A stretch of 64,000 bases of DNA from Spirochaetia bacterium (GTDB taxonomy: Bacteria; Spirochaetota; Spirochaetia; SZUA-6; Bin103): the NCBI GenBank assembly GCA_965208575.1, contig CBDBOV010000004.1:480001-544000 (forward strand), read 5' to 3'. Below the pieces are notes generated by a model. It saw nothing but the letters and a program-made list of their open reading frames with translations, had not been told where the DNA came from and did no database searches. Both the position numbers and the translations under genes were made by a program. Shown here one piece after another: positions 2,621 to 63,261 of the stretch. Numbering within the stretch: position 1 is the first letter of the stretch; each line of letters opens with the position of its first letter.

Positions 2621-2825
2621 CTCGCTCTCCGCCCGAGCTGCCGGAGCAGGCGCGCCGATTCGGCCGCAGGCGGTTGTACGCGGCGCGCTGCCGGGCACCC
2701 CACGCCGATTCGCCGAGCCTTCCGGGCCCCTCGATCTCCGTGAGCGATACCATGTAGCCGGTTCGCTGTTCGCCGCGTACGCGGGTTCTACCTCATGCTT
2801 CCCCCAGACACGCCATTTCTGAGGG

Positions 2826-4732: not shown

Positions 4733-4737
4733 GAGGG

Positions 4738-6644
4738 GAGCCAATTGCGCTGTCGGTAAGTTCCAAGCGGGCAGCGAGATAGAAGTGGGCGATTTTTTCT
4801 TTACCCCGTGACCGAGGCAATTGCGCTTGCTGCAAGCCCGATGCAGGCGATCAGAAACCAGGGGGAGGTATTTCTTACCCCACGACCTGCTGATCCCCTG
4901 TACGCGCGTCGGGAGCGCCGGTCAAGGCCCCGATGATACATCGCAACTGTTTGTCTACAAAATAATTGACGGTTCTCCTGTAACTCGCCATAGTGGCAAG
5001 TGAACAGTAATTCACAACAGGAGAACCGCCGATGGCCACTATACCACATCCGTTTCTGTTCCGCTGGGACAGCGTCGACCAGTTGGGTGATCTCGAACGC
5101 CTGACGCTGGTGCTCGACGCGCTCCCCGACGAGCCGCTGATGCAACTGCTGGAAGCCGGTCGCGGTCGCGGTCGCAACGATTATCCGGTGCGCCCGATGT
5201 GGAACTCGCTGATCGCCGGCTTCGTGTTCCAGCATCCCAGCATCGCCGCCTTGCGGCGCGAGTTGCTGCGCAACGCGCAGTTGCGAGACCTGTGCGGGTT
5301 CGACCCGTTCGACGGCGCACGGGCGGTGCCCAGCGAATACGCCTATACCCGCTTCCAGCGCCGGCTGCGCAAGCATCAGGGGCAGATCGATGAGCTGTTC
5401 CACAGCACCCTCGACGAACTCCGGATTGAGCTGCCGGACCTGGGCCAGGTACAGGCGCTGGACGGCAAGGAGCTGCACTCCCTGGCCAACGGTCCGAGCA
5501 GCTATCCGGTGCCGAAGGATAACAAGGAAGACACCGACGGGCGCCGCGACCGCGATGCCGATTGGGGCGTCAAGGGTTCCGGCGAGAAGAAGGGCGAGAA
5601 GGGCGAGAAGAAAGGCAAGAAGAAACACTACTGGTTCGGCTACCTGTTGCACTTGGTCGTGGACGCCACCTACGAGGTGCCGCTGGCGTTCGAGGTCACC
5701 AAGGCGTCGACCGGTGAGCAGCCGCAGGCACAGCGACTGCTTGATCAGATGCAGGATCGTCATCCCGAGCTGCTGCAACGGTGCGATCGCCTGAGCGCCG
5801 ACAAGGGCTACGACGACCAAAAGCTGATCAATCGGCTGTGGCAACAGCATCAGATCAAGCCGGTCATCGACATTCGAAACTGCTGGAAGGACGGAGAGGC
5901 GGAGCAGGATGGCGTCCTCACCAAGCGGGTGAGCGGTCAGGAGAACGTGATCTATACCCACGACGGCCAGGTATCCTGCATGTGCCCGCGGACCGGTGAA
6001 CTGCACCGCATGGCCTACGGCGGCTTCGAGCAGGCTCGCGAGTCGCTCAAGTATCGCTGTCCGGCGCGCTACTCGGGGGTCACCTGCAAGGGCATGGATC
6101 GGTGCCCGGTGAGCGACGCGGTGCGCATCCCGCTGGCCGAGGATCGGCGCGTGTTCACGCCGGTGGCGCGGTCCAGCTACCGGTGGCAGGACTTCTACGA
6201 CCAGCGCGGTGCCGTGGAGCGGGTCAACAGCCGGTTGGCCGGCGGCTTCGGGTTCGAGCGACCGGGCATCCGCGGGCTGGCGAAGATGCAGCTGCGCGTC
6301 ACCATGGCGCTGACGATCATGCTGGCGATGGCCGTGGGGCGCATCCGCGCCGGCCAACCAGAGAACCTGCGGAGTCTGGTCAAACCCGCCTGACCGACGG
6401 CCACTCGCCGGTCACCAAGAAACCCAATCCCACCGGCTCCTCAGCGAGACCGGTCTGTCCCGATCTGTGCATTGAGCCACGGATGAGGCTTGATCCCACC
6501 TCGCGGACCCCACTCAGCACACTCGATAGAGCCGTCATTCGGCGCCGGGCGAGCGTCAGCGACGCCGTCAACGTCCCGGGCGCGTGCTCTCTGGTGTGAC
6601 CGGCTGCTCAACGGCCCAAAAAACCGCTACAGCGCAATTGGCTC
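4738..6644 (+). mobile_element. IS1182/IS5-like insertion sequence, copy 2 (apparently identical tandem copy)
   Basis: Same IRs; third GAGGG at 6645-6649; 1912-bp period. Confidence 0.9.
5032..6393 (+). CDS. DDE transposase, identical to 3120-4481
   Basis: Identical 453-aa translation. Confidence 0.9.
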   Translation: MATIPHPFLFRWDSVDQLGDLERLTLVLDALPDEPLMQLLEAGRGRGRNDYPVRPMWNSLIAGFVFQHPSIAALRRELLRNAQLRDLCGFDPFDGARAVPSEYAYTRFQRRLRKHQGQIDELFHSTLDELRIELPDLGQVQALDGKELHSLANGPSSYPVPKDNKEDTDGRRDRDADWGVKGSGEKKGEKGEKKGKKKHYWFGYLLHLVVDATYEVPLAFEVTKASTGEQPQAQRLLDQMQDRHPELLQRCDRLSADKGYDDQKLINRLWQQHQIKPVIDIRNCWKDGEAEQDGVLTKRVSGQENVIYTHDGQVSCMCPRTGELHRMAYGGFEQARESLKYRCPARYSGVTCKGMDRCPVSDAVRIPLAEDRRVFTPVARSSYRWQDFYDQRGAVERVNSRLAGGFGFERPGIRGLAKMQLRVTMALTIMLAMAVGRIRAGQPENLRSLVKPA

Positions 6645-22408: not shown

Positions 22409-22419
22409 ACGTAGCTCCG

Positions 22420-22602
22420 TATGTAGATTTTTCGAGAGTATTGCGTAGCGGATTGCCGCTCCCTGGCTACTCTCGCGCCCGCAACGCAGACGGCCGGCCA
22501 GACAGAGTCAGATTTGTGAAGCGCGCGGCGTGTGAGTCACCGGGTTCACCCCGGCTCACGCCGCGCGCGCGTGCGGTTCTTTGAGTATCATTCGAACCGC
22601 CT
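22420..22602 (-). promoter_or_regulatory. Conserved structured 5' leader of the SBP operon, copy 1; intron-free allele
   Basis: Homologous to 28890-29076, 44522-44708, 56090-56285 and 61281-61465. Confidence 0.7.
22556..22591 (-). CDS. Putative leader peptide MILKEPHARAA (also the C-terminus of a 140-aa ORF starting at 22978)
   Basis: AGGCGG-N5-ATG; peptide conserved in 5 copies. Confidence 0.55.
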   Translation of the reverse strand: MILKEPHARAA

Positions 22603-22935
22603 TCTTCTCTAGATCTAGGTCGGGATCTGCGTTCCAATGCCACGCGTGGCGGTGATCTGAGCAGCAGTGAGTCTGAATGGCCGGCAACGCCGGCGGTGGG
22701 TTTTGCGGGCAGTCAGTCGCGGGCAGCGATCCGGGACGGCTGCCCTCGCCGCCGGGAAGGGTGGGGGCGGCCCGCATGCCGGTTCGGCGATGGACGGAGC
22801 CGGTGCCACCGACAGCTACGGCGGTGGTGAAGGCGACGGCGTGCGCGGGGTCGCGTAGGGGGCGATCAGCCCGAGCGGTTAGTTGTTTCTCGGTTCGAAA
22901 AGTAAGGGGGGGTACATCGGCTGCGTCACCGCCAA

Positions 22936-28886: not shown

Positions 28887-29029
28887 ACGTTCCTCCGTAT
28901 GTGGATTCTCGAGAGTATTGCGTAGCGGCTTGCCGCTCCCTGGCTACTCTCGCGCCCGCAACGCAGGCGGCCAGACAGAGTCGAATGGGTGACGCGCGCG
29001 GCGTGTGACTCAGCGGGTTCATACCCGGC

Positions 29030-29065
29030 TCACGCCGCGCGCGCGTGCGGTTCTTTGAGTATCAT
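29030..29065 (-). CDS. Putative leader peptide MILKEPHARAA
   Basis: AGGAGG-N5-ATG; stop codon lies inside the hairpin. Confidence 0.6.
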   Translation of the reverse strand: MILKEPHARAA

Positions 29066-29076
29066 TCGAGCCTCCT

Positions 29077-29227
29077 GTGCGCCGGTAAAACCGGCAAGGT
29101 GTTGTGAATGGAAGAGTCATACGTCGAAGGGTTAGCGACCCACGGCGGCTCCGAGTCATGCGCCGCCGCCCGCGAGGGCGGGGGTGAAGCGTTGACAGGG
29201 GTACGTGCGGGCCGGGTATCAAGCCGC
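29077..29227 (+). mobile_element. Group II intron 5' remnant (~150 nt)
   Basis: Starts GTGCG after CCTCCT; matches 56286-56437. Confidence 0.8.
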
Positions 29228-29674: not shown

Positions 29675-31209
29675 GGGGTGCATTCCGTCAGTGTGGTAGC
29701 GGTCAGGCAGCCTCAAGCTGGATCTGGTTGGATTCTGGGGTGGGCGATGAGGGCAACAGGCTCTCGAAATCGTCCCAGAAGCGACGGCTCTTCGCCGAAG
29801 CGCGGAGCTGAAGCATCTCCTTGGCTCCGTCCAGCGACCAAGTCATCCCACTCTGCTTCATGCGCTTGGCGACGACGTTCTTGCAGGCTCCCTCGACTAT
29901 ACCGCTGCCGATCGGCAGACCGCACGATCGATACAGCGGGTAGTCCATGCGGTGCTGGTTGGCCGTGAAGTAGTTGATCTCGCCCTGGAGGTCGTAGCAC
30001 TGCTTCTCGCTGTAGCGGCCACTGACGTGCAGTTCCTGCAGTTCCTTGATTACGGCGGCGACGCAGCCCTTGCGCAGCAGGCTGCGCCAGCGCTTGAAGG
30101 ATCTCTTGAACTGCTCGCTGCCCTCGCCGTACAACACCTTGCCGATCTTCCCCAAGTGGTCGCAGGCATGCCAGAAATCGAGGATGTGCCAGACCTTCTG
30201 CCCGGGTTCGGACAGCTGGGAGACCCGGTCCCATATCCAATGCGCTCCATCGCCCAGAATCACCAGCACCAGCGCTGCCAGGTGAGCGCTGCGCCGGCTC
30301 ATTTCCACCTCGATCCGGGGAAAGAACTCATCAGCATGCTCGATCCCGGTGACACAGGAGGTCTTGGTGCAGTGCGCTGCACCCTCCCGGTCCACCTTCA
30401 CCGCTGATACCGTCGCTACCTTGGAGTCCCGAAACACGCGATCGTAACTCTTTTTCCCATCTTCAGTTACCCGCTCGTTCGCGCGTGTCGCCACCTTCCC
30501 CGCGTCGATGCCCACGACCATCGTCCCGGTGATCTCTTCGCGCACCGCCACCGGCTCGTCGGCACGCTCGACAATCTCCCGCTGGCGTTGCTCCGCCAAC
30601 CCGTCAGTAACCGCCCGCACCATCTCGAACGCCTTGTTCATCGACACCAGCTCCCGCCCGTCAGGCCGCAACACCTCGTGGAATTGCGCCAGACCCTGCT
30701 CGTAGGACTGCTCGGCGCACCACCGCGCCATGAAGTACTGGCACCCAGGCGTGTACCCGCCCGCGATACCCAGTTGCTCTGTCAGCGGCACCCACCCCTT
30801 GCCACCGCCACCGAGCGGCGCGTAGTAGGCGCGCACCAAGGTGATCACGCCGAACAGCCCATGCAGCGTCTTCCGCCGTCTCCCGACAAAGCGGTACCGA
30901 ACCTCGCCGCGGGTTGCGCGCGCACCGACATACCCATCACCGACTTGCTCACACCAGCGTTGCATCGCTGCACGTCCCGCAGCCACCAGGCACTTCAGCA
31001 TACCGAGCTCCGCGGCGAGCAGATCCCGTGGTCCGCTGCACGGGTTCAGGTCAATCCCGCACCGGGTCTTGCAAAACCGGAGCAACTCCGTTACCAAGGT
31101 CTCACTCATTTTGGTCCCCTCCCAGAGACAGGTCGATGTTTACCACATCACCGAATCTCTGGTCTCTGGGAGGGTTCCTATTCCGCTACCACAGAGAAAG
31201 AATGCACCC
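29675..31209 (-). mobile_element. ISKra4/ISLre2-like (IS256/Mutator-related) element A
   Basis: IR GGGTGCATTC...GTGGTAGCGG / CCGCTACCAC...GAATGCACCC; 8-bp DR GAACTCAC at 29667 and 31210. Confidence 0.88.
29703..31109 (-). CDS. ISKra4/ISLre2-family transposase
   Basis: GDGAHWIW, LDFWHA, PIGSGIVEGACK. Confidence 0.9.
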   Translation of the reverse strand: MSETLVTELLRFCKTRCGIDLNPCSGPRDLLAAELGMLKCLVAAGRAAMQRWCEQVGDGYVGARATRGEVRYRFVGRRRKTLHGLFGVITLVRAYYAPLGGGGKGWVPLTEQLGIAGGYTPGCQYFMARWCAEQSYEQGLAQFHEVLRPDGRELVSMNKAFEMVRAVTDGLAEQRQREIVERADEPVAVREEITGTMVVGIDAGKVATRANERVTEDGKKSYDRVFRDSKVATVSAVKVDREGAAHCTKTSCVTGIEHADEFFPRIEVEMSRRSAHLAALVLVILGDGAHWIWDRVSQLSEPGQKVWHILDFWHACDHLGKIGKVLYGEGSEQFKRSFKRWRSLLRKGCVAAVIKELQELHVSGRYSEKQCYDLQGEINYFTANQHRMDYPLYRSCGLPIGSGIVEGACKNVVAKRMKQSGMTWSLDGAKEMLQLRASAKSRRFWDDFESLLPSSPTPESNQIQLEAA

Positions 31210-31217
31210 GAACTCAC

Positions 31218-32655
31218 GGGTGCGAACGCCGAAAGCGGTAGCAAATCATTGACTCTGAGGCGGAAAAAAGGTCTACCTACCCCACGACACCACACCATGG
31301 GGAGGTAGACCATGAATACGGAAGGACTTATAACGGCCGCCGAGGGCCTTGTCAAGGAGTTGCAAGGGCGCATCAACGGCGGCCGGATGGATCTCCAGGA
31401 GGCGGAAGCCAAGATCCTTGAGATGGTGAACTGGATCGGCGACGAGATGGTGCAGGAAGTGGTAGCCGGACTCGCGGAGCCGACATCCGCCAACCAGATC
31501 ACGGTTGGCGGTGAGGTGGCAGTGTTCGAGCGGGTGCGTAACCTGCGGTTCATCAACCGCTTCGGCGAAGAAGTGGTGCACCCGCGGCGCTGCTACCGGT
31601 ACCGGCACCGGAGCGGAGGCGTGGCGCCGCTGGATGTGAAGCTGGGGATCGACGGGTGCTTCGGATTCTCACCGCTGATGACGTACCTGATCTGCATGCT
31701 GGGCGCGGATGAGTCGTATGCCGGTGCAGCGGCAAAACTGGAGGCGATGCTCGGGTTCAAGGTGAGCTCGACGGCGGTGCAGCGCACTACCGAGAAGACG
31801 GGAGAGCGGATACCCGATACCCCCGACGATCTAATTGATGAGCAGCGTCAGCGGCAGCCATGTTCCCTGATGGTGGTCGAGGTAGACGGAACGACGAGCC
31901 CGCAGATCACGGAGCAGGAAGGGATTACTGGTCTTGCCAGCCTCCGGGCGCCGACCTGTTACAAGGAGTGCAACCTGATAGTCATCGAGAAGCACGATGA
32001 TGGCAAGGTGATCGACCGCTGGACCGGAGGACGCTATGGACCACGCGGTGAGTTTGCCGGCTACGCCGAGCAGGCTGGACTGCGAATGGGCTTCCTGGAC
32101 GCTCCACGAACGCTGTTCCTCGGTGATGGTGCACACCACAACTGGGAACTGCAGCAGACCCACTTCCCCGGCGCGATACCGATCCTGGACTACTACCACG
32201 CGGCTGAGCACCTCGCCGATTACTGCAAGCTGCTGTCTGCTACGCTACGCGATGCCGTCGAGCGCAGCTTGTCCACGATGATGTGGGAAGGCGAGGTGCT
32301 GCAGATGATCCACGAGATGAAGCGTTCACTGTCGAAGGTCACCGATACTGACGAAGCGTGGAAGCAGATCAACTACTTCACGAACAACCAGGACCGTATG
32401 GACTATGCCCGTTACCGCGATCTCGGGTGGCCGATCGGCAGTGGCTTGGTCGAAGGGCAGTGCAAATTGGTTGTCGGTCGACGCTTCAAGGGCAACGGGA
32501 TGAGATGGCGACCGCACGACAACCGCTGCGTGCTACGCACCCGTCTGGCTCTGCTCAACGGCGACCTCAAGCGCTATTTCAGTCCTCCTGACGACTGCGA
32601 GATCAAAGCGGCCTGATCGTGTCAACCCCTGTTACCGCTTTTGGCATTGGCACCC
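31218..32655 (+). mobile_element. ISKra4/ISLre2-like element B, copy 1
   Basis: IR GGGTGCGAACGCCGAAAGCGGTA / TACCGCTTTTGGCATTGGCACCC; DR GAACTCAC at 31210 and 32656. Confidence 0.88.
31312..32616 (+). CDS. ISKra4/ISLre2-family transposase
   Basis: GDGAHHNW, LDYYHA, PIGSGLVEGQCK. Confidence 0.9.
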   Translation: MNTEGLITAAEGLVKELQGRINGGRMDLQEAEAKILEMVNWIGDEMVQEVVAGLAEPTSANQITVGGEVAVFERVRNLRFINRFGEEVVHPRRCYRYRHRSGGVAPLDVKLGIDGCFGFSPLMTYLICMLGADESYAGAAAKLEAMLGFKVSSTAVQRTTEKTGERIPDTPDDLIDEQRQRQPCSLMVVEVDGTTSPQITEQEGITGLASLRAPTCYKECNLIVIEKHDDGKVIDRWTGGRYGPRGEFAGYAEQAGLRMGFLDAPRTLFLGDGAHHNWELQQTHFPGAIPILDYYHAAEHLADYCKLLSATLRDAVERSLSTMMWEGEVLQMIHEMKRSLSKVTDTDEAWKQINYFTNNQDRMDYARYRDLGWPIGSGLVEGQCKLVVGRRFKGNGMRWRPHDNRCVLRTRLALLNGDLKRYFSPPDDCEIKAA

Positions 32656-32663
32656 GAACTCAC

Positions 32664-34102
32664 GGGTGCGAACGCCGAAAGCGGTAGCAAATCATTGACT
32701 CTGAGGCGGAAAAAAGGTCTACCTACCCCACGACACCACACCATGGGGAGGTAGACCATGAATACGGAAGGACTTATAACGGCCGCCGAGGGCCTTGTCA
32801 AGGAGTTGCAAGGGCGCATCAACGGCGGCCGGATGGATCTCCAGGAGGCGGAAGCCAAGATCCTTGAGATGGTGAACTGGATCGGCGACGAGATGGTGCA
32901 GGAAGTGGTAGCCGGACTCGCGGAGCCGACATCCGCCAACCAGATCACGGTTGGCGGTGAGGTGGCAGTGTTCGAGCGGGTGCGTAACCTGCGGTTCATC
33001 AACCGCTTCGGCGAAGAAGTGGTGCACCCGCGGCGCTGCTACCGGTACCGGCACCGGAGCGGAGGCGTGGCGCCGCTGGATGTGAAGCTGGGGATCGACG
33101 GGTGCTTCGGATTCTCACCGCTGATGACGTACCTGATCTGCATGCTGGGCGCGGATGAGTCGTATGCCGGTGCAGCGGCAAAACTGGAGGCGATGCTCGG
33201 GTTCAAGGTGAGCTCGACGGCGGTGCAGCGCACTACCGAGAAGACGGGAGAGCGGATACCCGATACCCCCGACGATCTAATTGATGAGCAGCGTCAGCGG
33301 CAGCCATGTTCCCTGATGGTGGTCGAGGTAGACGGAACGACGAGCCCGCAGATCACGGAGCAGGAAGGGATTACTGGTCTTGCCAGCCTCCGGGCGCCGA
33401 CCTGTTACAAGGAGTGCAACCTGATAGTCATCGAGAAGCACGATGATGGCAAGGTGATCGACCGCTGGACCGGAGGACGCTATGGACCACGCGGTGAGTT
33501 TGCCGGCTACGCCGAGCAGGCTGGACTGCGAATGGGCTTCCTGGACGCTCCACGAACGCTGTTCCTCGGTGATGGTGCACACCACAACTGGGAACTGCAG
33601 CAGACCCACTTCCCCGGCGCGATACCGATCCTGGACTACTACCACGCGGCTGAGCACCTCGCCGATTACTGCAAGCTGCTGTCTGCTACGCTACGCGATG
33701 CCGTCGAGCGCAGCTTGTCCACGATGATGTGGGAAGGCGAGGTGCTGCAGATGATCCACGAGATGAAGCGTTCACTGTCGAAGGTCACCGATACTGACGA
33801 AGCGTGGAAGCAGATCAACTACTTCACGAACAACCAGGACCGTATGGACTATGCCCGTTACCGCGATCTCGGGTGGCCGATCGGCAGTGGCTTGGTCGAA
33901 GGGCAGTGCAAATTGGTTGTCGGTCGACGCTTCAAGGGCAACGGGATGAGATGGCGACCGCACGACAACCGCTGCGTGCTACGCACCCGTCTGGCTCTGC
34001 TCAACGGCGACCTCAAGCGCTATTTCAGTCCTCCTGACGACTGCGAGATCAAAGCGGCCTGATCGTGTCAACCCCTGTTACCGCTTTTGGCATTGGCACC
34101 CC
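32664..34102 (+). mobile_element. ISKra4/ISLre2-like element B, copy 2
   Basis: Tandem copy with 1446-bp period; DR GAACTCAC at 34103. Confidence 0.88.
32758..34062 (+). CDS. ISKra4/ISLre2-family transposase, identical copy
   Basis: Identical translation to 31312-32616. Confidence 0.9.
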   Translation: MNTEGLITAAEGLVKELQGRINGGRMDLQEAEAKILEMVNWIGDEMVQEVVAGLAEPTSANQITVGGEVAVFERVRNLRFINRFGEEVVHPRRCYRYRHRSGGVAPLDVKLGIDGCFGFSPLMTYLICMLGADESYAGAAAKLEAMLGFKVSSTAVQRTTEKTGERIPDTPDDLIDEQRQRQPCSLMVVEVDGTTSPQITEQEGITGLASLRAPTCYKECNLIVIEKHDDGKVIDRWTGGRYGPRGEFAGYAEQAGLRMGFLDAPRTLFLGDGAHHNWELQQTHFPGAIPILDYYHAAEHLADYCKLLSATLRDAVERSLSTMMWEGEVLQMIHEMKRSLSKVTDTDEAWKQINYFTNNQDRMDYARYRDLGWPIGSGLVEGQCKLVVGRRFKGNGMRWRPHDNRCVLRTRLALLNGDLKRYFSPPDDCEIKAA

Positions 34103-44518: not shown

Positions 44519-44661
44519 ACGTTCCTCCGTATGTGGATTCTCGAGAGTATTGCGTAGCGGCTTGCCGCTCCCTGGCTACTCTCGCGCCCGCAACGCAGGC
44601 GGCCAGACAGAGTCGAATGGGTGACGCGCGCGGCGTGTGACTCAGCGGGTGCATACCCGGC

Positions 44662-44697
44662 TCACGCCGCGCGCGCGTGCGGTTCTTTGAGTATCAT
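44662..44697 (-). CDS. Putative leader peptide MILKEPHARAA
   Basis: AGGAGG-N5-ATG. Confidence 0.6.
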   Translation of the reverse strand: MILKEPHARAA

Positions 44698-44708
44698 TCG
44701 AGCCTCCT

Positions 44709-44860
44709 GTGCGCCGGTAAAAACCGGCAAGGTGTTGTGAATGGAAGAGTCATACGTCGAAGGGTTAGCGACCCACGGCGGCTCCGAGTCATGCGCCGCC
44801 GCCCGCGAGGGCGGGGGTGAAGCGTTGACAGGGGTACGTGCGGGCCGGGTATCGAGCCGC
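44709..44860 (+). mobile_element. Group II intron 5' remnant
   Basis: GTGCG start; same deletion breakpoint as the 29077 copy. Confidence 0.8.
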
Positions 44861-54290: not shown

Positions 54291-56072
54291 CTATTGCCCT
54301 CCCACCAATTCTTGCTTCAAGGCGCTGTTGATCCAGACACGAGACATAACCGGGCCTACACCACCCGTCCCCGCCGCTGGAGCGAGTTCTCCGTAGTGGT
54401 TTTCCACCCATGGCCAGATACCCAGGTATACATATGGAGTTGGCAAAAGGGCGAAAGCCACAGTAGATAAGGCCTCCTGGTTCAACTCCTTGGTCAGCTT
54501 GTACTTTTCAACCAGGTCCCTTGTATCGTATGCCTGCTGCCATCGCTCTCTAATTTCAGCGTATTCAGGGTGATGCTCGAACATTGGTGTATTATATATC
54601 AGGGGCTCGATGTATCGTCCCTGTATTACACCAAGCGCATCAACACCTCCTCCAACGGTAAACATGGAAAGCGGCCCATGCTCCTTGGCTGTAAACATGG
54701 CATCCATAGTAGTCTTCTCAATCAAATCAATTGAAACGTCGACTCCGATATCAGCCCAGAAAGCTACCAGTAATGAAGCTATATCTTCCCAGGGCTCTAT
54801 TGCATATCCTTGCAGAGTAGCCTCGAAACCGTCCGCGAGTCCCGCCTCGGCTAATAGTTGCCTCGCACGCTCGGGGTTATATTCAAGCTGCTCCCTGATT
54901 GATTCCGGTAGCTTCTCCAGAGGAGTATAGACGGTCTCTGGCAGGTTCGAAGGTGCCGGAAAGTTTAAAATCTCTCCCGCACCACCCCATATATTGGCAA
55001 TAAAGCCTTGTCGATCTATAGCCATGCTCATTGCTTTCCGCACCTTCGGATCGTCAAAGGGCGCCGTATCCAGCCTCATGCCTATTAAGTAGGACCCGCC
55101 TGCTGGTCTCCCGATAAGCTTTATTTCGGGATTTGTATTTTGTAGCGACTGGACGTACTGCGCGCCAACTACATTTAGTTGGTCCAGCCTCCCTGTTCGT
55201 AACGCAGCGATCTGGGCGGCTCTATCCGGTGTCAGAATTTTAACCAGGCGGTCGATGAACGGAATCTCGTATTCCTTGCCATCGATGGTTTCAGTTTGCC
55301 AGTAATTGTCGTTCCTTACGTAACTTACCGAGGTGCCTTCCACGAAGTCATCGAGCAAAAACGGGCCTGTCCCTACCCCGCGATGATTCCTCCAGTCACT
55401 TGGTCCCGCCTCCACCAGCTCCGGAGGACTCGCGATCCACGTCGGTAAATGGCCCCTTCCTATGAGAAGCATCCAATCAGGCGTGTAAGAGGCCAACTTG
55501 AATTCAACCGTGTACTCATCCGTAGCGGTTACCGACTCAACTGCATCATATATGGTCCAGGCCTTGTCTGACGCTAGAGTACGAGTCCAGTGATAAGCTA
55601 CATCCTCCGCTGTCAGCTCCCTTGATGCCATTACTCCCGGCGCTTCATGCCACATGACTCCCCGACGTATGTTGAAAATAACGGTTGTGGCATCGGGCGT
55701 ACTCCAGCTTTCAGCTAACACACCTGATAGAAAATCATTAGGAGGACCTGAACGTACATTGAACGGCCACTCATTGGTGCCACGCGGCCCCCTATTCTGC
55801 CAGTCTCCACCAAGAAGCTGTTCGAAGTGTTCAACATAGACCATTAACGGCCAGACAAACTCAGCTGGGTCCCACTCTGTAGGCGGGAAGCGCCCGAGAT
55901 AAGCGTCCATCATGGTAATCGTCCCACCGTATTCCGGTCCAGCTTCCTCCACCATTTCCGTTTCCATCGCCGCTGCCGGCTCCTCTTCCGTGCTACCGCC
56001 GGCCCAGAGGCCGGTTGCGGAGACCACCAGGACCAACGCAACCGCGAAGGTCATTGTCAAAAGGTTTTTCAT
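54291..56072 (-). CDS. Family-5 SBP, cassette 4 (most divergent)
   Basis: Signal peptide; LAESWS, RELTAEDV, VGTGPF. Confidence 0.92.
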   Translation of the reverse strand: MKNLLTMTFAVALVLVVSATGLWAGGSTEEEPAAAMETEMVEEAGPEYGGTITMMDAYLGRFPPTEWDPAEFVWPLMVYVEHFEQLLGGDWQNRGPRGTNEWPFNVRSGPPNDFLSGVLAESWSTPDATTVIFNIRRGVMWHEAPGVMASRELTAEDVAYHWTRTLASDKAWTIYDAVESVTATDEYTVEFKLASYTPDWMLLIGRGHLPTWIASPPELVEAGPSDWRNHRGVGTGPFLLDDFVEGTSVSYVRNDNYWQTETIDGKEYEIPFIDRLVKILTPDRAAQIAALRTGRLDQLNVVGAQYVQSLQNTNPEIKLIGRPAGGSYLIGMRLDTAPFDDPKVRKAMSMAIDRQGFIANIWGGAGEILNFPAPSNLPETVYTPLEKLPESIREQLEYNPERARQLLAEAGLADGFEATLQGYAIEPWEDIASLLVAFWADIGVDVSIDLIEKTTMDAMFTAKEHGPLSMFTVGGGVDALGVIQGRYIEPLIYNTPMFEHHPEYAEIRERWQQAYDTRDLVEKYKLTKELNQEALSTVAFALLPTPYVYLGIWPWVENHYGELAPAAGTGGVGPVMSRVWINSALKQELVGGQ

Positions 56073-56238
56073 CCTGTCTTCCTTACATGTTATCTCCAGA
56101 GTATTGCGGAGCGAGTTGTCGCTCCCTGGCTACTTTCGGGCCCGCAACGCGGGCGCGCCCGCCAGAGCGGGCTGCCAGTCTGAGTCAGTCAAGTTTTCGG
56201 AAGCGCGCGGCGTGTGACTCACCCGGGTTCACGCCGGC

Positions 56239-56274
56239 TCACGCCGCACGCGCGTGCGGTTCTTTCAGTATCAT
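56239..56274 (-). CDS. Putative leader peptide MILKEPHARAA
   Basis: AGGAGG-N5-ATG; synonymous CTG and CGT variants relative to the other copies. Confidence 0.6.
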   Translation of the reverse strand: MILKEPHARAA

Positions 56275-56285
56275 CTTCACCTCCT

Positions 56286-57525
56286 GTGCGCCGGCACAAA
56301 CCGGCAGGGTGTTGTGAATGAAGGAGTCATACGTCGAAGGGCTAGCGACCCACGGCGGCCCCGAGTCATGCGCCGTCGCTCGTAAGGGCGGGGGTGTAGC
56401 GTTGACAGGGGTACGTGCGGGCCGGGTATCGAGCCGCGAAAGGAATTACTTTGGGGTGCCGACGCCGTAGGAGGATGCGGAAGGCCACACCCGGGGCGCC
56501 GATATCGCGAGGCGCCACGGGACCCTGCGCGGTCATAGACCCCGAGCACGTACGGAAACACCTTGCGCGGGAGCCGGGAGATCCCAGCTTCGTCTGTGGC
56601 GGATGGCGCCGCAGGCCGTGTCGGGAAGTCCAAGGACGTACGCCGACGTTGAACGGAGCTGGGAAGTCGGACAGGCCCATAGTACCTGGGAAACCCGCGA
56701 ACAAGGACGGGAGCTGCCGCAGGCGGCGCGGCTATGGTGAACCCTACACGGGCACGCAGGCGGAAACGCCGGATACAGCCAAGGGAGCACCTACGGCCAC
56801 GCCGGCCGGTAGCGACCGGGCCGCGGAGCGGGTGGAGGAAAGGGGCCTGGCCAAAGGGAATCCGCACCAGCAAAACGCGCCCCGGACACCGCGCCGGCAA
56901 TACGGAGGGGACCTGGAGGCCAACCTCCTGGACCTCTGTGGATGGCTGCAGCGAGGAGCGTACCGGGCGAAGCCGGTGCGGAGGGTGTTCGTCCCCAAGA
57001 GCGACGGGCGGCAACGACCGCTCGGCGTGACGGCGCTGGAAGACAAGATCGTCCAGCGTGCGACAGTCGAAGTGCTGAACACCATCTACGAGACTGACTT
57101 TCTCGGGTTCAGTTACGGGTTCCGACCGGGGCGCAGCAAGTACAATGCGTTGGACGCGCTCTATGTGGGCCTGCTGACACGGAAGGTGAACTGGGTGCTC
57201 GATATGGACATCCGTGGGTTCTTCGATGCCATCGACCACGGCTGGCTGGTGAAGACCGAGCTTCGGCGGCGCCTGCACGATCCGGTCCCGGAGGTGGGAA
57301 GCTGGCTGCGCTCGGTTGTGAGTGGGCACCTGCGTTACTACGGGGTGCCCAGGAACTCCCGCGCACTCCGCCTGTTCCGCCTCCGGGTTGGTCGGCTCTG
57401 GTATCGGTCGATGCGGCGGCGCAGTCAGAAAACCCGGCTTACCTGGGAGCGGATGAGCCGCCTGCTCGACCACTGGTTGCCACCGCCCCGAGTGTGCCAT
57501 CCCTATCCCTTGCACCGCCTTGGCG
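56286..57525 (+). mobile_element. Group II intron with internally deleted RT/maturase; 3' domains V-VI missing
   Basis: GTGCG start; PKSDGRQRPLGV..EDKIVQ, FSYGFRPGR, DMDIRGFFD joined directly to the maturase HLRYYGV..RRRSQK; no YADD. Confidence 0.88.
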
Positions 57526-58544
57526 GGACGGTTGCGGTCGCCTGGAAGGACGAGGGCGGCCAGCATGCCGGTTCGGCGATGGACCGAGCGGGCGCCACCG
57601 ATAGCTACGGCGGTGGTGAAGGCGACGGTGTGCGCGGGGCCGCGTACGGGGCGATCAGCCCGAGCGGTTAGTTGTTTCTCGGTTTCTCGGTTTCTCGGTT
57701 TGAAAAAGTTGGGGGGGGGGGGGGTATGATGCACCGGTCGCGTCACCGGTCGGAGCTTGTCGGCATTGCCGACGAGGTCCGAGCGTGTCGATGGGATGGG
57801 CCAAGAGCGACGCCTCTGGCGTCGGTTTTGGGGCGCGAACCGGTCACTGCGCTGCCTGTCATCGTGACGCTTCATGACCATCCGTCGAACCCCAAGTGAG
57901 GCACGCTAGCATAGGCGCGGCGCGCCGTCAACGACTCGAGGGGGTCACCGGGGTGAGCGAAGGTCACCGGCAACCCGTCACTGCGCTGACTGTCATCATG
58001 GCGCGTCATCATCGATCCGTCGAACCCCAGGCGAGGCAAGCTTGCTGTGGGCGCGGGCACCCTGTCATTTGGGCCGACCCGTGGGACCCGTGCGTGCGCG
58101 GCGGACCGGCAGCCCCGCGGTGTCACGCCGGATGCGCCCACCTGTGGCTCCGTCCTGGCCCCATGGGTGTGCATGCGCCGTCGGCTGCTCCGAAGGCGCG
58201 CCCGGAACGCGCCCGACCAAGTCCACGAGCGTCGGGCTGGGTATGGGCGTGAGCTCACCCGTCAGCCCGAAGCAGCGCCTGGGCACCGCGTCACCGCAGA
58301 CCGAGTCGCCGAAGTGTACTGAGTTAGTGGTCCCGTAGGGCTGGCTCCGAGAAGCGTGGCAGGTGTTGACCCGGGCGACCGGCGACCCCACCGATCTTGA
58401 CGCTGATTTCTCGTACGTCTCCCATCGGTGCACTTTCAATACTCGTCGTCACAGCGAAGCCGGGCACCAGGTATCTCATCACACGACTGACGCGTCGCCG
58501 TTTCGTGGGCCCCGTGACCGGACAGTGCGGGCCATCGGAGAGAT

Positions 58545-59095: not shown

Positions 59096-59147
59096 CATCC
59101 GCAACAGGGGGCAAGGCGATTGACGCAGCGCGCGGGCCGCCGGTTCA

Positions 59148-60257
59148 ATGGGGAGCGTGGACGTCGCCAACCCGATCTACGACGTGGTGTTCAAGTACCT
59201 GATGCAGAACGACCGCGTCGCCCGCCTGCTGATCGGCAGGATCACCGGCCTCGCGGTGCGGTCGCTCACCGTCAGCCCGCAGGAGAGCGCCGTGCGCCGC
59301 ACTCCCGAAGACCCGGAGCGCGTCCAGCCGCTGACGCTGCTGCGCATGGACTTCGCCGCCCGCGTGCGCACTGCCGACGGCGGTGAGCGGCAGGTGCTGA
59401 TCGAGATTCAGAAGACCAGCGCGCCGACCGTGATCGAGCGCTTCCGGCGCTACCTGGGCCAGCAGATCGGCAGCGGCGACAACATCCTTACCCATCCGTC
59501 GGGCCGCACCGAGGCGGTGCCGATCGTGACCATCTACTTCCTGGGCTACGCCCTGGATGACCTGTCGGACGAGGCGGTGATCGACGTGTGCCCGCAGGTG
59601 ACCGAGCGGCGCACGGGGCGGGAGCTTGCGGCGAGCCATCCGCTGGTGGAGGGCATCCATCACCGCAGCCACATCATCCAGATACCGCGGCTGGCGAGCC
59701 GGCGGCGGGACGAGTTGGAGCGGCTGCTGGCGATCTTCGACCAGGGCTTGGTGAAGGGCAACGGGCGGGGTGACGCGCATGTGCTGACGATCGAAGAAGG
59801 GGAGTATCCGGCGGAGTGCGCCTTCGTGCTGCGGCAGTTGCGGGAGGCGATGGCGGAAGAAGAGGTGCGGCGCGACATGGAGGGAGAGGACCTGCTGTTG
59901 CGAGACTCGATGCTGCTGGCGCGGCAGGTGGAGCATCGCGACCGCCTTATAGCACAGGAGCGGGAGCAGGCGCAGCAGGAGCGGGAGCGGGCGCAGCGAG
60001 CGGAGCGGGCGCAACAGCAGGCGGAACGGGCACAGCAGCAGGCGGAACAGGCTCAACAACAGGCGCAGCAGGAGCGGCAGCAGGCGCAGCAGGAGCGGCA
60101 GCAGGCGGAACAGGCGCAGCAACAGGCGGAGCAGGAGCGGCGCTTGCTGCTCGCGCAGGCGATCCGCCGCCTGCATGGCCTGGGACAGGATGCCGAGGCG
60201 ATCGCCGCGGCGCTGGCGGTGGATGCGGACGAGGTGCGGCGAGTCCTGTCGGGGTGA
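59148..60257 (+). CDS. Rpn/PD-(D/E)XK_2-like protein with (A/E/Q/R)-rich coiled-coil tail
   Basis: ANPIYDVVFKYLM, RMDF, LIEIQK; AEQAQQQ/QQERQQ repeats; HTH-like end. Confidence 0.7.
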   Translation: MGSVDVANPIYDVVFKYLMQNDRVARLLIGRITGLAVRSLTVSPQESAVRRTPEDPERVQPLTLLRMDFAARVRTADGGERQVLIEIQKTSAPTVIERFRRYLGQQIGSGDNILTHPSGRTEAVPIVTIYFLGYALDDLSDEAVIDVCPQVTERRTGRELAASHPLVEGIHHRSHIIQIPRLASRRRDELERLLAIFDQGLVKGNGRGDAHVLTIEEGEYPAECAFVLRQLREAMAEEEVRRDMEGEDLLLRDSMLLARQVEHRDRLIAQEREQAQQERERAQRAERAQQQAERAQQQAEQAQQQAQQERQQAQQERQQAEQAQQQAEQERRLLLAQAIRRLHGLGQDAEAIAAALAVDADEVRRVLSG

Positions 60258-60710
60258 CGGCCGTGCGTAGGCGGGAGACTGAGGCCCGACGAATTCGCCG
60301 TCACGAACTTGCTTGCTCACCGAGTCGGCGCTTGTCCCTCCATCACGTCCGTCAGCATGGGATCACCCTGACCCAAGGGTCGGCGCTGTTGACAGGGTCG
60401 CCGCGCTCGTGAGACAGTGCACCGTTAGGGGTTCGGCGAATGCAGATGACGCGTTACGACCACCGCCAGCGCAGTGACCGGTTAGGGGTGAGGCACCCAA
60501 GTTCAGCCGATCGCCGCTCGGTCCATCGCCAAACCGGCATGCTGGCCGCCCGCGTCCTTCCAGGCGACCGCAACCGTCCCGCATCCCCGCCCGCGACTAA
60601 CTGCGCGCAAAACCCACCGCCGGCGTTGGCGGCCATTCAGACTCACTGCTGCTCAGACCACCGCCACGCGTGGCGTTGTAAAGCAGATCCCGACGTAAAT
60701 CTGGAGAAGA

Positions 60711-61280
60711 GTTGGAGTAGGCGATGACCATCGCTGATCACCCCCTCCACAGATCCCGGCGAGCGGAGCTACCGCACCGGGCTCCTGCCTCAGGTATGAC
60801 GCCAAGGCGGTGCAAGGGATAGGGATGGCACACTCGGGGCGGTGGCAACCAGTGGTCGAGCAGACGGCTCATCCGCTCCCAGGTAAGCCGGGTTTTTTGA
60901 CTGCGCCGCCGCATCGACCGATACCAGAGCCGACCAACCCGGAGGCGGAACAGGCGGAGTGCGCGGGGGTTCGTGGGCACCCCGTAGTATCGCAGGTGCC
61001 CACCCACAACCGAGCGCAGCCAGCTTCCCACCTCCGCGACCGAATCGTGCAGGCGCCGCCGAGGCTTGGTCTTCACCTGCCCCAGCTTGGCCTGCAACCG
61101 CTTCCGCATCGTCTGCCTGAGCGCCGTAACCGTCCGTCACTCCACTTCGTCGCGCAGATGTGCGTGAACCCCAGGAAGTCGTACGAGCGACGGCGCATGA
61201 CTCGGGGCCGCCGTGGGTCGGTAACCCTTCGACGTATGACTCTTCCATTCACAACACCTTGCCGGTTTTTGCCGGCGCAC
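60711..61280 (-). mobile_element. Miniaturised group II intron retaining both ends (570 nt)
   Basis: 5' GTGCG at 61280; domain V GAGCCCGGTGCGGTAGCTCCGCTCGCCGGGATC at about 60784-60752; domain VI ends ...CTACTCCAAC at 60711; maturase fragment inside. Confidence 0.88.
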
Positions 61281-61291
61281 AGGAGGTTCGA

Positions 61292-61327
61292 ATGATACTC
61301 AAAGACCCGCACGCGCGCGCGGCGTGA
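61292..61327 (+). CDS. Putative leader peptide MILKDPHARAA
   Basis: AGGAGG(61281)-N5-ATG. Confidence 0.6.
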   Translation: MILKDPHARAA

Positions 61328-61470
61328 GCCGGGGCGAACCCGGTGAGTCACACGCCGCGCGCGTCACCCATTCGACTCTGTCTGGCCGCCTGCGTTGCGG
61401 GCGCGAGACTAGCCAGGGAGCGGCAAGTCGCTCCGCAATACTCTCGAAAAATCCACATAGGGAGAAACCT

Positions 61471-63261
61471 ATGAACATTGTAAGAATTAGAATGACCTTC
61501 GCGTTTGCGTTGGTCCTGATTCTGAGCGCAACCGGCCTGTGGGCCGCCGGCGCAGAAGAGGCGCCGGCAGCCGCTGCCGACAAGAAGTACGTTACCGACC
61601 CCTCCACCGGCAAGGTGGTGACCGCGCCAGAGTACGGCGGGACAATAACCTACGCCAAAGCAGGAGAGCCGCCGAATCCTGACTACATGGTCTCTGCTCA
61701 CGGTCATGGTGCCTTTACCTCTGGCGTTTTAGGGAGGCTGGTAACCGCGGACTGGGCAACGCCCAGAGACAAACATGACTTCGTGTTTCACAACGTTCCA
61801 ACTAACACGATAGGGGGTCTGGCTGAAAGCTGGTCGCAGCCCGACCCACTGACTTATATCGTCAAAGTCCGCCAGGGCGTTCACTGGCACGACAAGGCAC
61901 CGATGAACGGTCGCGAGCTGACTGCCGATGATATCGAGTTCAACTATCACCGTATCTTGGGCCTTGGCAGCGGTTTCACCGAACGTAGTGAACGTGCTAG
62001 TAGCTGGAAGGGTATGCAATTTGAATCGATAACGGCCACCGACAACTGGACGGTTGTTTTTGAGCTAAAGGAGCTAAACCTCCGTGCGCTGGCTGTTATC
62101 CTCGACGACTGGAGTACTGCGATATATCCCCCCGAGGTAATCAGGGAACACGGCGACGCGACCGACTGGCGCAACCTGGTCGGCACCGGACCCTGGATGC
62201 TGACTGACTACGTCGAGGGCAGCTCTATCACCTGGGAAAAGAATCCTGACTACTGGGGCTTCGACGAAAAATACCCGCAGAACCGGCTGCCCTATATTGA
62301 CCGGTTAAGGGCACTGATTATGCCAGAGGCAGCGACACGCCTAGCGGCACTGCGCACGGGTGGGGTTGATTACATGGGTCTGATCGGGGGAACTCAAATG
62401 ACGAGTCTCGACCAGATAAGGAGCCTCCAGCGGACCAACCCCGAACTCGTGTGGTGGCCAATTTACAATCGGTCGGATAATGCGTTTGGTATGAACGTTC
62501 AGTTGCCTCCCTTCGACGACATCAGGGTGCGCAAAGCTATGCAAATGGCAATAAACCTCGAGGAAATTAACAACGCCTATTATGGAGGTACTGCAGATGT
62601 GATACCTCAGGGGCCTCTTACCGTGATGATGACAGAGATTGTCACCCACTTTGAAGATTGGCCCGAAGATGTCAAGAAGGTCTTTGACTACGACCCGGAA
62701 GGTGCCGAAGCGTTGCTTGATGAGGCCGGATATCCTCGCGGCGCGGACGGCATTAGATTTAAGACCGAGTTGCTGCACAGCGAGGCGTTCGATGTAAACT
62801 ATCTAGAATTAGTCGCTTCATACTGGAATAAGATTGGCGTTGATGTAGAGATTGACCTAGCGCCAAGAGCTGAAATTGTTGCTAGAAGTCGTGAGCGGGA
62901 TTTCGAAATGAAAGGTGCGAACGCGGCCCAGAAGTGGTTCCCAATGGTAATGCTAAATAACCTTACGTCGGGAATGCTATGGAACTCGTCCAATGTCGAC
63001 GACCCAGCTTATGACGCCATGTATGAAGCCGCCGGAGCCGCTACCACCCTCGAGGAGCAGAACAGGATAGCTGGAGAGATGAATCAGTATGCAATAGAGA
63101 AGTTCTGGACGATATGGGGTCCCATGCCCCCAAAGTTTCAGCCGACCCAGCCGTGGGTTAAAGGTTTTAACGGTGAATTCGCAATCGGAACCGGTCAACT
63201 ACACCAAGTCTTCGCCCGACTGTGGATTGATAGTGAGCTGAAGGAAGCAATGGGTCATTAG
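61471..63261 (+). CDS. Family-5 SBP, cassette 5 (inverted)
   Basis: Signal peptide; LAESWS, WHDKAPMNGRELTA, YWGFDEKYPQNRLPY. Confidence 0.92.
   Translation: MNIVRIRMTFAFALVLILSATGLWAAGAEEAPAAAADKKYVTDPSTGKVVTAPEYGGTITYAKAGEPPNPDYMVSAHGHGAFTSGVLGRLVTADWATPRDKHDFVFHNVPTNTIGGLAESWSQPDPLTYIVKVRQGVHWHDKAPMNGRELTADDIEFNYHRILGLGSGFTERSERASSWKGMQFESITATDNWTVVFELKELNLRALAVILDDWSTAIYPPEVIREHGDATDWRNLVGTGPWMLTDYVEGSSITWEKNPDYWGFDEKYPQNRLPYIDRLRALIMPEAATRLAALRTGGVDYMGLIGGTQMTSLDQIRSLQRTNPELVWWPIYNRSDNAFGMNVQLPPFDDIRVRKAMQMAINLEEINNAYYGGTADVIPQGPLTVMMTEIVTHFEDWPEDVKKVFDYDPEGAEALLDEAGYPRGADGIRFKTELLHSEAFDVNYLELVASYWNKIGVDVEIDLAPRAEIVARSRERDFEMKGANAAQKWFPMVMLNNLTSGMLWNSSNVDDPAYDAMYEAAGAATTLEEQNRIAGEMNQYAIEKFWTIWGPMPPKFQPTQPWVKGFNGEFAIGTGQLHQVFARLWIDSELKEAMGH

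Follow-up and report, generated by a model that had tools for sequence, protein, structure and literature searches.

Remnants of a group II intron with a Shine-Dalgarno-like EBS1, and relatives at antisense ribosome-binding sites

Introduction

What determines where a group II intron settles when the place that it occupies reads, on the other strand, as a translation signal? The question is raised by a stretch of 64,000 nucleotides (nt) from a Spirochaetia bacterium (assembly GCA_965208575.1, contig CBDBOV010000004.1, positions 480,001 to 544,000), hereafter the window, in which intron sequence follows the hexamer CCTCCT at four places. A preliminary description of this stretch took CCTCCT to be the antisense of the Shine-Dalgarno (SD) sequence of a leader peptide and assigned the exon-binding site 1 (EBS1) of the intron to a hairpin loop reading AGGAGG. 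It proposed that pairing of this loop with intron-binding site 1 (IBS1), the end of the 5' exon, amounts to an SD-directed rule of insertion, which leaves the ribosome-binding site (RBS) and the coding sequence (CDS) intact. Here, we follow these claims through the window, through the genome to which it belongs (G000; 6.5 Mb, 6 contigs) and through related introns. We consider it very probable that these intron sequences are dead remnants of a group II retroelement lacking the endonuclease domain (En-minus), that its EBS1 is an SD mimic, and that its relatives target antisense RBSs.

Four decayed copies of one intron in the window

The sequence CCTCCTGTGCG has exactly four matches in the window (29071-29081, 44703-44713 and 56280-56290 on the plus strand, 61276-61286 on the minus strand), so that all four occupied sites do read CCTCCT and then GTGCG, as first described. 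The motif alone is weak evidence: with one mismatch allowed, 5 occurrences were found against a mean of 2.32 in shuffled sequence, and 10 of 100 shuffles reached 5. All four sites continue into intron sequence that is 91-100% alike over the first 95 nt, and the Rfam model RF02005 (group-II-D1D4-6) matches at three of them with 179.7, 103.3 and 100 bits; the four sites are therefore homologous and not a product of chance. The features of the intron copies are as follows (aa, amino acids; RT, reverse transcriptase; ORF, open reading frame).

56280..56285, plus strand: CCTCCT, the hexamer that ends the 5' exon (IBS1); the minus strand reads AGGAGG, the SD of the leader ORF
56286..57525, plus strand: decayed copy of the group II intron, with an intact domain I and 5' end (GTGCG)
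56323..56542, plus strand: RF02005 group-II-D1D4-6 match, 179.7 bits, full model
56469..56474, plus strand: EBS1 AGGAGG, in the loop of the hairpin 56465-56480
56415..57671, plus strand: 418-aa open frame, remnant of the intron-encoded RT, RVT_1 positions 1-109 of 205 only
29077..29225, plus strand: short intron remnant after CCTCCT; a deletion has removed the remaining intron along with about 36 nt of 3' exon
44709..44858, plus strand: short intron remnant after CCTCCT, a stump of about 150 nt like that at 29077
60711..61280, minus strand: intron remnant after CCTCCT, in which the initial ~95 nt, the ORF's RT7-X portion, domains V/VI and the 3' end ...CTACTCCAAC remain
22597..22603, plus strand: empty paralogous site, CCGCCT and then T; across the boundary 22602/22603 it reads CCGCCT followed by TCTTCTC

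The copy at 56286 begins with GTGCG, in agreement with the group II 5' end GUGYG, and its domain I-IV fold is recognised by RF02005. From its RT ORF an internal stretch (RT5-7) is deleted, and domains V/VI have been lost together with ~120 nt of 3' exon, the sequence jumping to the distal 3' flank at 57525, beyond which the 418-aa frame extends; the domain V/VI model RF00029 has no match in this copy. Because domains V/VI are missing, it is a remnant and not a working intron. In the remnant at 61280, domains V/VI were recognised by reading the sequence. The 3' flank of the empty site at 22602/22603 matches the flank beyond the intron 3' end at 60710. All four window copies are thus decayed, and G000 as a whole contains neither a match to the GIIM domain nor an intact intron-encoded protein (IEP) of the SD-type lineage. 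An intact copy of the window lineage is found in a congener, G003, where it too is located in a leader. A GC hairpin with TTCTTT lies ~27 nt upstream of the window insertion; relatives do not have it.

The site is the antisense of a leader-peptide Shine-Dalgarno sequence

Each window copy lies antisense and upstream of an SBP_bac_5 gene, which encodes a family-5 solute-binding protein, with a leader of ~210 nt between intron and gene.

54291..56072, minus strand: SBP_bac_5 gene to which the leader belongs; the genome has ~59 such paralogous units of leader and gene
56239..56274, minus strand: leader ORF of 11 codons (MILKEPHARAA) and its stop, separated by 5 nt from the SD upstream
56073-56285, 22409-22602, 28887-29076 and 44519-44708, minus strand, and 61281-61500, plus strand: leader copies in the window, ~160-210 nt

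On the minus strand, AGGAGG (56285-56280) is followed by 5 nt, an ATG at 56274, the codons of MILKEPHARAA and a stop at 56241-56239, so the reading of CCTCCT as an antisense SD holds as a description of the site. The leader occurs 59 times in G000, followed in 49 cases by an ORF of 576-623 aa; these 49 ORFs share the same signal-peptide-like N-terminus and are SBP_bac_5 where tested. The leader ORF is kept in most leaders, reading exactly MILKEPHARAA in 16 of 54 and as close variants in others; in 15 of the 54 leaders the scanned stretch contains no ATG, several of them carrying GTG or TTG at the aligned position. Conservation of the leader at the nucleotide level is too high to separate a constraint on the peptide from one on the RNA.

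The leader looks like an undescribed cis-regulatory element of a greatly expanded transporter family. It holds two mutually exclusive GC-rich hairpins, one within the 11-codon ORF and one across its stop, an attenuator-like arrangement; an Rfam scan of the leader gave only a chance-level match (M23, E 0.93). Upstream of the leaders, in the window (57660-57725, 22870-22915) and in other cassettes, there is a conserved block, CGGTTAGTTGTTTCTCGGTT...AAAAAGT followed by 7-20 G, and the G-runs differ in length among copies.

EBS1 covaries with the last six bases of the 5' exon

Relatives of the intron were collected in two ways. A DNA search covered 40 related genomes, including the genus of the window (g1) and its sister genus (g2), and the intron matches without leader in the sister genus yielded 20 loci. 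A protein-guided scan, in which each species was represented by one genome, brought up at least 533 relatives; 80 of these, with 65-97% IEP identity, were used. With 5' ends placed by BLAST and identical 45-nt exons entered once, this gave 89 distinct junctions, of which the wider set contributed 70 and the sister genus 19. Two further junctions were put aside as tandem, although one of them (L123) was so classed wrongly, its exon ending CTCCTT with CAT upstream, and loci with a flank shorter than 30 nt or a 5' end beyond the BLAST match were left out (L068, L083, L089, L092, L093, L105, L113, L116 and L137).

The AGGAGG of the hairpin CCGT-AGGAGG-AT-GCGG (56465-56480) occupies the variable 9-nt loop of the RF02005 model. 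Other D1D4-6 introns of G000 have loops in the same place that are complementary, by eye, to their own 5' exons (UCUCAU with AUGAGA, CGACAA with UUGUCG). Among the relatives, a change in the loop is accompanied by one at exon position -1: UGGAGG goes with CCTCCA (G020) and CGGAGG with CCTCCG (G018, G023), and further matches are GGGAGA with TCTCCC (G018) and AGGAGG with CCTCCT (window, G003). An alignment of 88 junctions (A1) has 97.5% of its 528 cells paired, versus 72.6 ± 1.2% in shuffles, none of 500 of which was as high; when the partner is slid along the alignment, the paired cells drop to 48-73%. Moreover, all six EBS1-IBS1 pairs show two-sided (compensatory) changes, with a covariation score of 0.831 versus 0.336. 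The loop could be parsed for 87 junctions, with six of six bases paired in 77, five in 8 and fewer in 2; its sequences are AAGGAG (35), UGGAGG (15), AGGAGG and AGGAGA (6 each), and several others. The original assignment of the hairpin loop thus proves right, and EBS1 pairs with exon positions -6 to -1. Ten sites of older remnants in G000 (S2-S4) have lost the EBS1 loop and stand outside this test (e.g., CCTCGC/GCGAGG). When introns of the window lineage were searched by eye for segments complementary to their exons between -7 and -20, GAAUG/CAUUC was the only candidate EBS2-IBS2 pair; it was rejected, the stretch being conserved family-wide.

Relatives lie antisense at the starts of unrelated genes

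Whereas genomes of the window's genus have the intron together with the leader, matches in the sister genus start only about six bases before the intron and lack it. At the 20 sister-genus loci the intron follows CCTCC(A/G/C/T) at unrelated places, most of them reading CAT-N(4-10)-CCTCCN before GTGCG, which is the antisense of an SD, a spacer and an ATG. As the criterion for a gene start we took an antisense ATG 10-16 nt from the junction. An ORF of at least 60 aa had been considered as well and was dropped, since controls gave 17-25% in a genome of 67% GC.

Such an ATG is present at 77 of the 89 distinct junctions, mostly at 12-14 nt (61/70 in the wider set, from other phyla, and 16/19 in the sister genus). 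By comparison, the same hexamers taken genome-wide in G000 have an ATG at that distance in 6-13% of cases, and other occurrences of a junction's own hexamer in the locus flanks in 15 of 111. Pfam searches with 19 target ORFs gave matches for 15, in different families: nucleoside hydrolase, short-chain dehydrogenase, IS110 transposase, zinc dehydrogenase, sulfatase, TraI-type helicase, periplasmic binding proteins, alpha/beta hydrolases, phage-type integrase and DinB. For several ORFs the match reaches back to residue 1-7 of the protein and so confirms the start codon. The preliminary description had allowed that other members of the family might lie at sites unrelated to an SD; by these counts they lie predominantly antisense at an SD and ATG, in front of real genes that are unrelated to each other.

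The sites also show how little of the target is shared. In G020, 14 copies are identical over 2016 nt, each with an open 542-codon RT frame and each at an unrelated gene; being identical over their whole length, they represent a recent burst. Exon positions -7 and beyond vary among these 14 copies, and positions -7 to -12 likewise vary among L112, L121, L122 and L124, which all carry one intron sequence. On the 3' side, position +1 is T at 47 of 60 junctions and conservation does not extend past it. At 7 of 16 G020 loci, a second copy stands directly behind the first. The G020 copies with a readable 3' end have G as the first base of the 3' exon, which in the tandems is the first G of the next intron itself. 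An occupied site still looks like a target, and therefore nothing beyond +1 appears to be read; insertion seems to regenerate its own target. The head-to-tail pairs are L043, L047, L050, L051, L052, L054 and L056, with the second copy 2016 nt on (2192 in L050).

Why are true gene starts so strongly represented? Most likely, SD hexamers are concentrated there, and antisense insertions within CDSs would be lost by selection. Alternatively, the excess could be mechanistic, the ribonucleoprotein (RNP) being drawn to initiation regions, or to DNA that is opened there, perhaps by way of the SD-like loop; we regard this as improbable. The roughly six-fold enrichment over the hexamer background speaks for it, as does the presence of the enrichment already in G020, with its recent copies, and an association of intron RNA with ribosomes has been reported for another group II intron (PMC3851717). 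On the other side, 3 of the 19 sister-genus junctions have no ATG at the expected distance, among them L041, with only a CTG-initiated open frame, and L049, with only short ORFs. Furthermore, SD and ATG are separated by a spacer of varying length (12-15 nt from the junction), from which it follows that the start codon itself is not read.

The relatives come, by their record titles, from Acidobacteriota, Planctomycetota, Gemmatimonadota, Pseudomonadota (Proteobacteria), Thermodesulfobacteriota, Spirochaetota and others. In a quick IEP tree, midpoint-rooted and supported only by the SH-aLRT (Shimodaira-Hasegawa-like approximate likelihood ratio test), the window-genus lineage adjoins the sister genus, and the SD-type loop is found throughout a clade in which host phyla are mixed; exceptions with other loops are nested (L072; L085, L108 and L127 together), with L103 at the base. 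A D1D4-6 lineage of G005 (L142, L147, L151 and at least 10 more, i.e., 13 or more copies), with an IEP 54% identical and open frames of 538 aa, is not SD-directed, its exons ending GGGTAC, GGGTAT or GGGTGC.

Several other properties were looked for. The 3' end of 16S rRNA was considered as an ancestral home; the single assembled G000 site (GGATCACCTCCTTT) is empty, and by inspection none of the 89 exons reads GATCACCTCC. A crude test for replication-strand bias on contig C4 of G020, by GC skew in twenty 20-kb pieces, was not significant: of eight copies there that could be assigned, six have the intron sense on the G-rich strand and two do not, with one more at the switch. A sigma-70 scan of L044 found no outward promoter in the intron 5' end, other promoter types being outside that scan. 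The antisense strand of the intron carries a terminator-like hairpin with a T-run at position ~590-615 (L044 1096-1121, minus strand; the homologous stretch of the window is ~56870-56900); this one hairpin was reported three times versus 1.6 ± 1.3 expected, which is not above chance.

The window lineage spread among diverged leaders

All clear copies in G000 sit in paralogous leaders, as they would if one ancestral insertion had been passively copied by duplication of the leader-gene cassette, the match to an SD being accidental. The similarities of introns and genes make this very unlikely. Over the first 95 intron bases, eight of ten G000 copies are 89-100% alike, two older copies being more diverged, whereas the adjoining SBP genes are 61-84% alike and group differently. 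The copy at 56286 is 100% alike with that at C4:563804, yet their genes are only 64-68% alike; the gene beside 44709 is nearest to that at C6:936601 (84-89%), yet the 44709 intron is identical to the 29077 intron. Since introns are more alike than the genes beside them, and since the two groupings disagree, the insertions are younger than the divergence of the paralogs. Relatives at the SDs of unrelated genes elsewhere speak against passive copying as well. One pair does fit it: between 29077 and 44709 the leader is 99% and the intron 100% alike, with the same deletion, which points to the 44709 remnant having been copied together with its leader, by conversion or duplication. With the exception of this pair, the cassette-duplication scenario, which the preliminary description had itself put forward as a possible objection, does not account for the copies. 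The same RT deletion is common to three G000 copies, which points to the spread of a defective derivative or to conversion. By an eye count, remnants of some kind, older and more diverged ones among them, are present in ~23 of 54 leaders.

A second D1D4-6 family is present in G000 with ~5 near-identical copies (C2:295370, C1:507607, C2:585457, C6:488926 and C5:154807). It has an EBS1-like loop CGACAA and exons ending TTGTCG or TCGTCG, and its IEP frame, interrupted in each copy by one in-frame TGA, is 41% identical to the SD-type IEP. Within the intron copy at C6:953166 there is an extra segment of ~325 nt (C6:952203-952529) that contains, reversed, a sequence resembling the 5' exon of this second family, which hints at mobile elements nested in one another.

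The lineage of the window's genus appears restricted to the leader

The empty allele at 22602/22603 does read CCGCCT, as first noted; the mismatch in IBS1 explains little, because ~8 other empty leaders read CCTCCT. In G000, CCTCCT is accompanied by a suitably spaced antisense ATG at 488 sites. Of these, 17 fall in leaders, and 9 of the 17 are occupied; among the 471 outside leaders there is no clear copy. Two of the 471 are followed by seven intron-like bases, the likeliest without further similarity and the other not intron-like by eye. With 0 of 471 versus 9 of 17, the SD hexamer alone does not explain placement of the lineage in this genus, and this counts against the proposed rule: it is borne out in the relatives and not in G000, where copies are found only in the repeated SBP leader. 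The restriction appears to hold across the genus, in that every listed match spanning the junction in five g1 genomes also covers at least 80 nt of leader.

The restriction could stem from a longer target, from spread by conversion between paralogous leaders, or from survival confined to places upstream of a redundant gene family. The first of these would mean that the window genus has a longer leader site as its target, recognised through extra RNA pairings or protein, and that the SD is only its last six bases. The occupancy in G000, the leader-spanning matches of the five genomes and the leader location of the sole intact copy (G003) all agree with this possibility, to which we nevertheless give clearly less than even weight. 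Positions -7 to -12 of the exon differ among occupied leaders (TTCGAA, TCGAGC, CTTCA, TTTGCA), inspection revealed no segment of the intron that is both specific to the lineage and able to pair with the conserved leader, and the nearest sister lineage, with 82% IEP identity, has no such restriction. Moreover, conversion among leaders, or better survival beside redundant genes, would give the same picture. Under recognition of an antisense SD, the lineage in this genus would occupy only the AGGAGG of the leader ORF, having spread after the leaders diverged and then decayed in G000.

Type of ribozyme and intron-encoded protein

Intact relatives allow the element to be compared with known models. 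The IEP of L041 matches TIGR04416 with 334 bits (cut-off 300) and RVT_1 with 125 bits, and has no endonuclease domain; the closest solved structure to the RT is the GsI-IIC RT (E 2.6e-41). RF00029 detects domains V/VI in L076 with 46.9 bits and gives 38.4 bits for L041 and 37.1 bits for L141, both just below the cut-off of 40. Domain V has a 5-nt loop, GCGG-UAGUC-CCGC, in L041 and in the C6 copy, and the RF00029 alignment accordingly has five unaligned loop bases. The ribozyme is of the Rfam D1D4-6 type and, judged by RNA features, IIE/IIF-like.

Other features of the window

Two pairs of 100% identical direct repeats (2821-6393 and 31204-34062), the units of which hold a 453-aa or a 434-aa ORF, are probably tandem insertion-sequence copies. 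At 59979-60146 there is a coding repeat with a 21-nt period, GCGGARCRGGCNCARCAGCAG-like, within the ORF 59145-60320 (minus strand) or 59148-60257 (plus strand); Pfam gave no match for the ORF that holds it.

Discussion

We suggest that the six-nt EBS1 loop of these introns, with the sequence of an SD site (NGGAGG, AAGGAG and similar), would guide the excised intron RNA, together with its RT, to reverse-splice into the DNA strand that reads CCTCCN or CTCCTT, the antisense of an RBS. Reverse transcription would then be primed without an endonuclease. The recognised target would consist of the six exon bases and the first base of the 3' exon only. The intron would come to lie backwards, directly 5' of the SD, with SD, spacer, start codon and CDS intact; antisense and 5' of the SD is the only placement at the motif that would need no splicing and yet keep SD, spacer and start together. 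The expectation that insertion spares RBS and CDS is borne out at the sites, with the reservation that the 5' untranslated region (UTR) is interrupted by an antisense intron of ~1.9 kb.

Besides the leader restriction in the window's genus, several points weigh against this reading. Twelve of the 89 junctions have no ATG at the expected distance, and a few family members have EBS1 loops that are not SD-like (AUGCAU in L072; UAGGGU in L085, L108 and L127). The junctions of related copies are not independent, though each counted 5' exon is distinct, and the background frequencies of ATG were drawn from one genome and from short flanks. An intron antisense to its host gene also needs to be transcribed, which the reading leaves unexplained. 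The terminator-like hairpin would face transcripts from the host promoter, so the downstream gene could be silenced rather than spared. Finally, we infer mobility and the route of insertion from the sequences and from known group II biology.

How new would such a target be? Three target specificities of bacterial group II introns are named in a 2015 review, namely homing sites, terminators and attC sites (PMC4424553), to which the introduction of a 2025 paper adds only hairpin targeting by IIC introns and IIB1 introns at start and stop codons (PMC12584367). A full-text literature search, covering all but some older key papers and supplements, found no description of an SD- or RBS-directed group II intron. 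On balance, we lean slightly toward the view that a large, horizontally spread En-minus clade with an SD-mimic EBS1 retrotransposes into antisense RBSs through ~7 target bases, and that this would be a fourth natural target strategy.

If so, the lineage has found a further way for a retroelement to reach harmless and universal landing sites: the landing spot would exist upstream of most genes in most bacteria, the translation signals would be kept whole, and a target regenerated by insertion would explain the tandem arrays. The SD-like loop might also allow the RNA of the intron to engage the anti-SD of 16S rRNA. The family also offers a case from nature in which a guide of six bases, clearly covarying, selects the target, and it might serve as a compact retargetable element with very small sequence demands. 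The questions that it raises are whether an antisense intron in the 5' UTR silences the gene, how the intron is transcribed, and why one genus restricts it to one leader.

Comparison with known group II introns

Class C (IIC) introns insert after intrinsic terminators or integron attC sites. The introns described here resemble them in having an En-minus RT, a short exon pairing without evident EBS2-IBS2, a generic genomic landmark as target and many dispersed sites per genome. Unlike in IIC, coding sequence of unrelated genes, in antisense, makes up the 5' exons, with no need for a hairpin (a statement made without a formal hairpin scan of all exons), EBS1 forms six covarying pairs as against three or four, the RNA is of the D1D4-6 family with a 5-nt domain V loop, and insertion is antisense at gene starts and not sense after gene ends. 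RmInt1, of class D, uses EBS1, EBS2 and EBS3 on a long specific site. It homes into ISRm2011-2 and is likewise En-minus and found in many copies within one genome, whereas no EBS2 pairing is seen here.

In ribozyme traits there is a likeness to IIE/IIF introns, for which a 5-nt domain V loop is described and only EBS1-IBS1 matters for splicing in vitro (PMC3753933). Both have a compact IIB-like ribozyme with this loop, an En-minus IEP and a second hairpin after the EBS1 hairpin in domain Id3. In contrast, the IIE/IIF introns are described with EBS2-IBS2 and ordinary homing, while here positions -7 to -12 are not conserved even among identical copies. The IIB1 introns at start and stop codons share with our family the tie of an intron lineage to the translation signals of genes; as described, they are sense-oriented and specific to one gene (PMC12584367), whereas the family described here lies antisense, 5' of the SD, at genes unrelated to one another.

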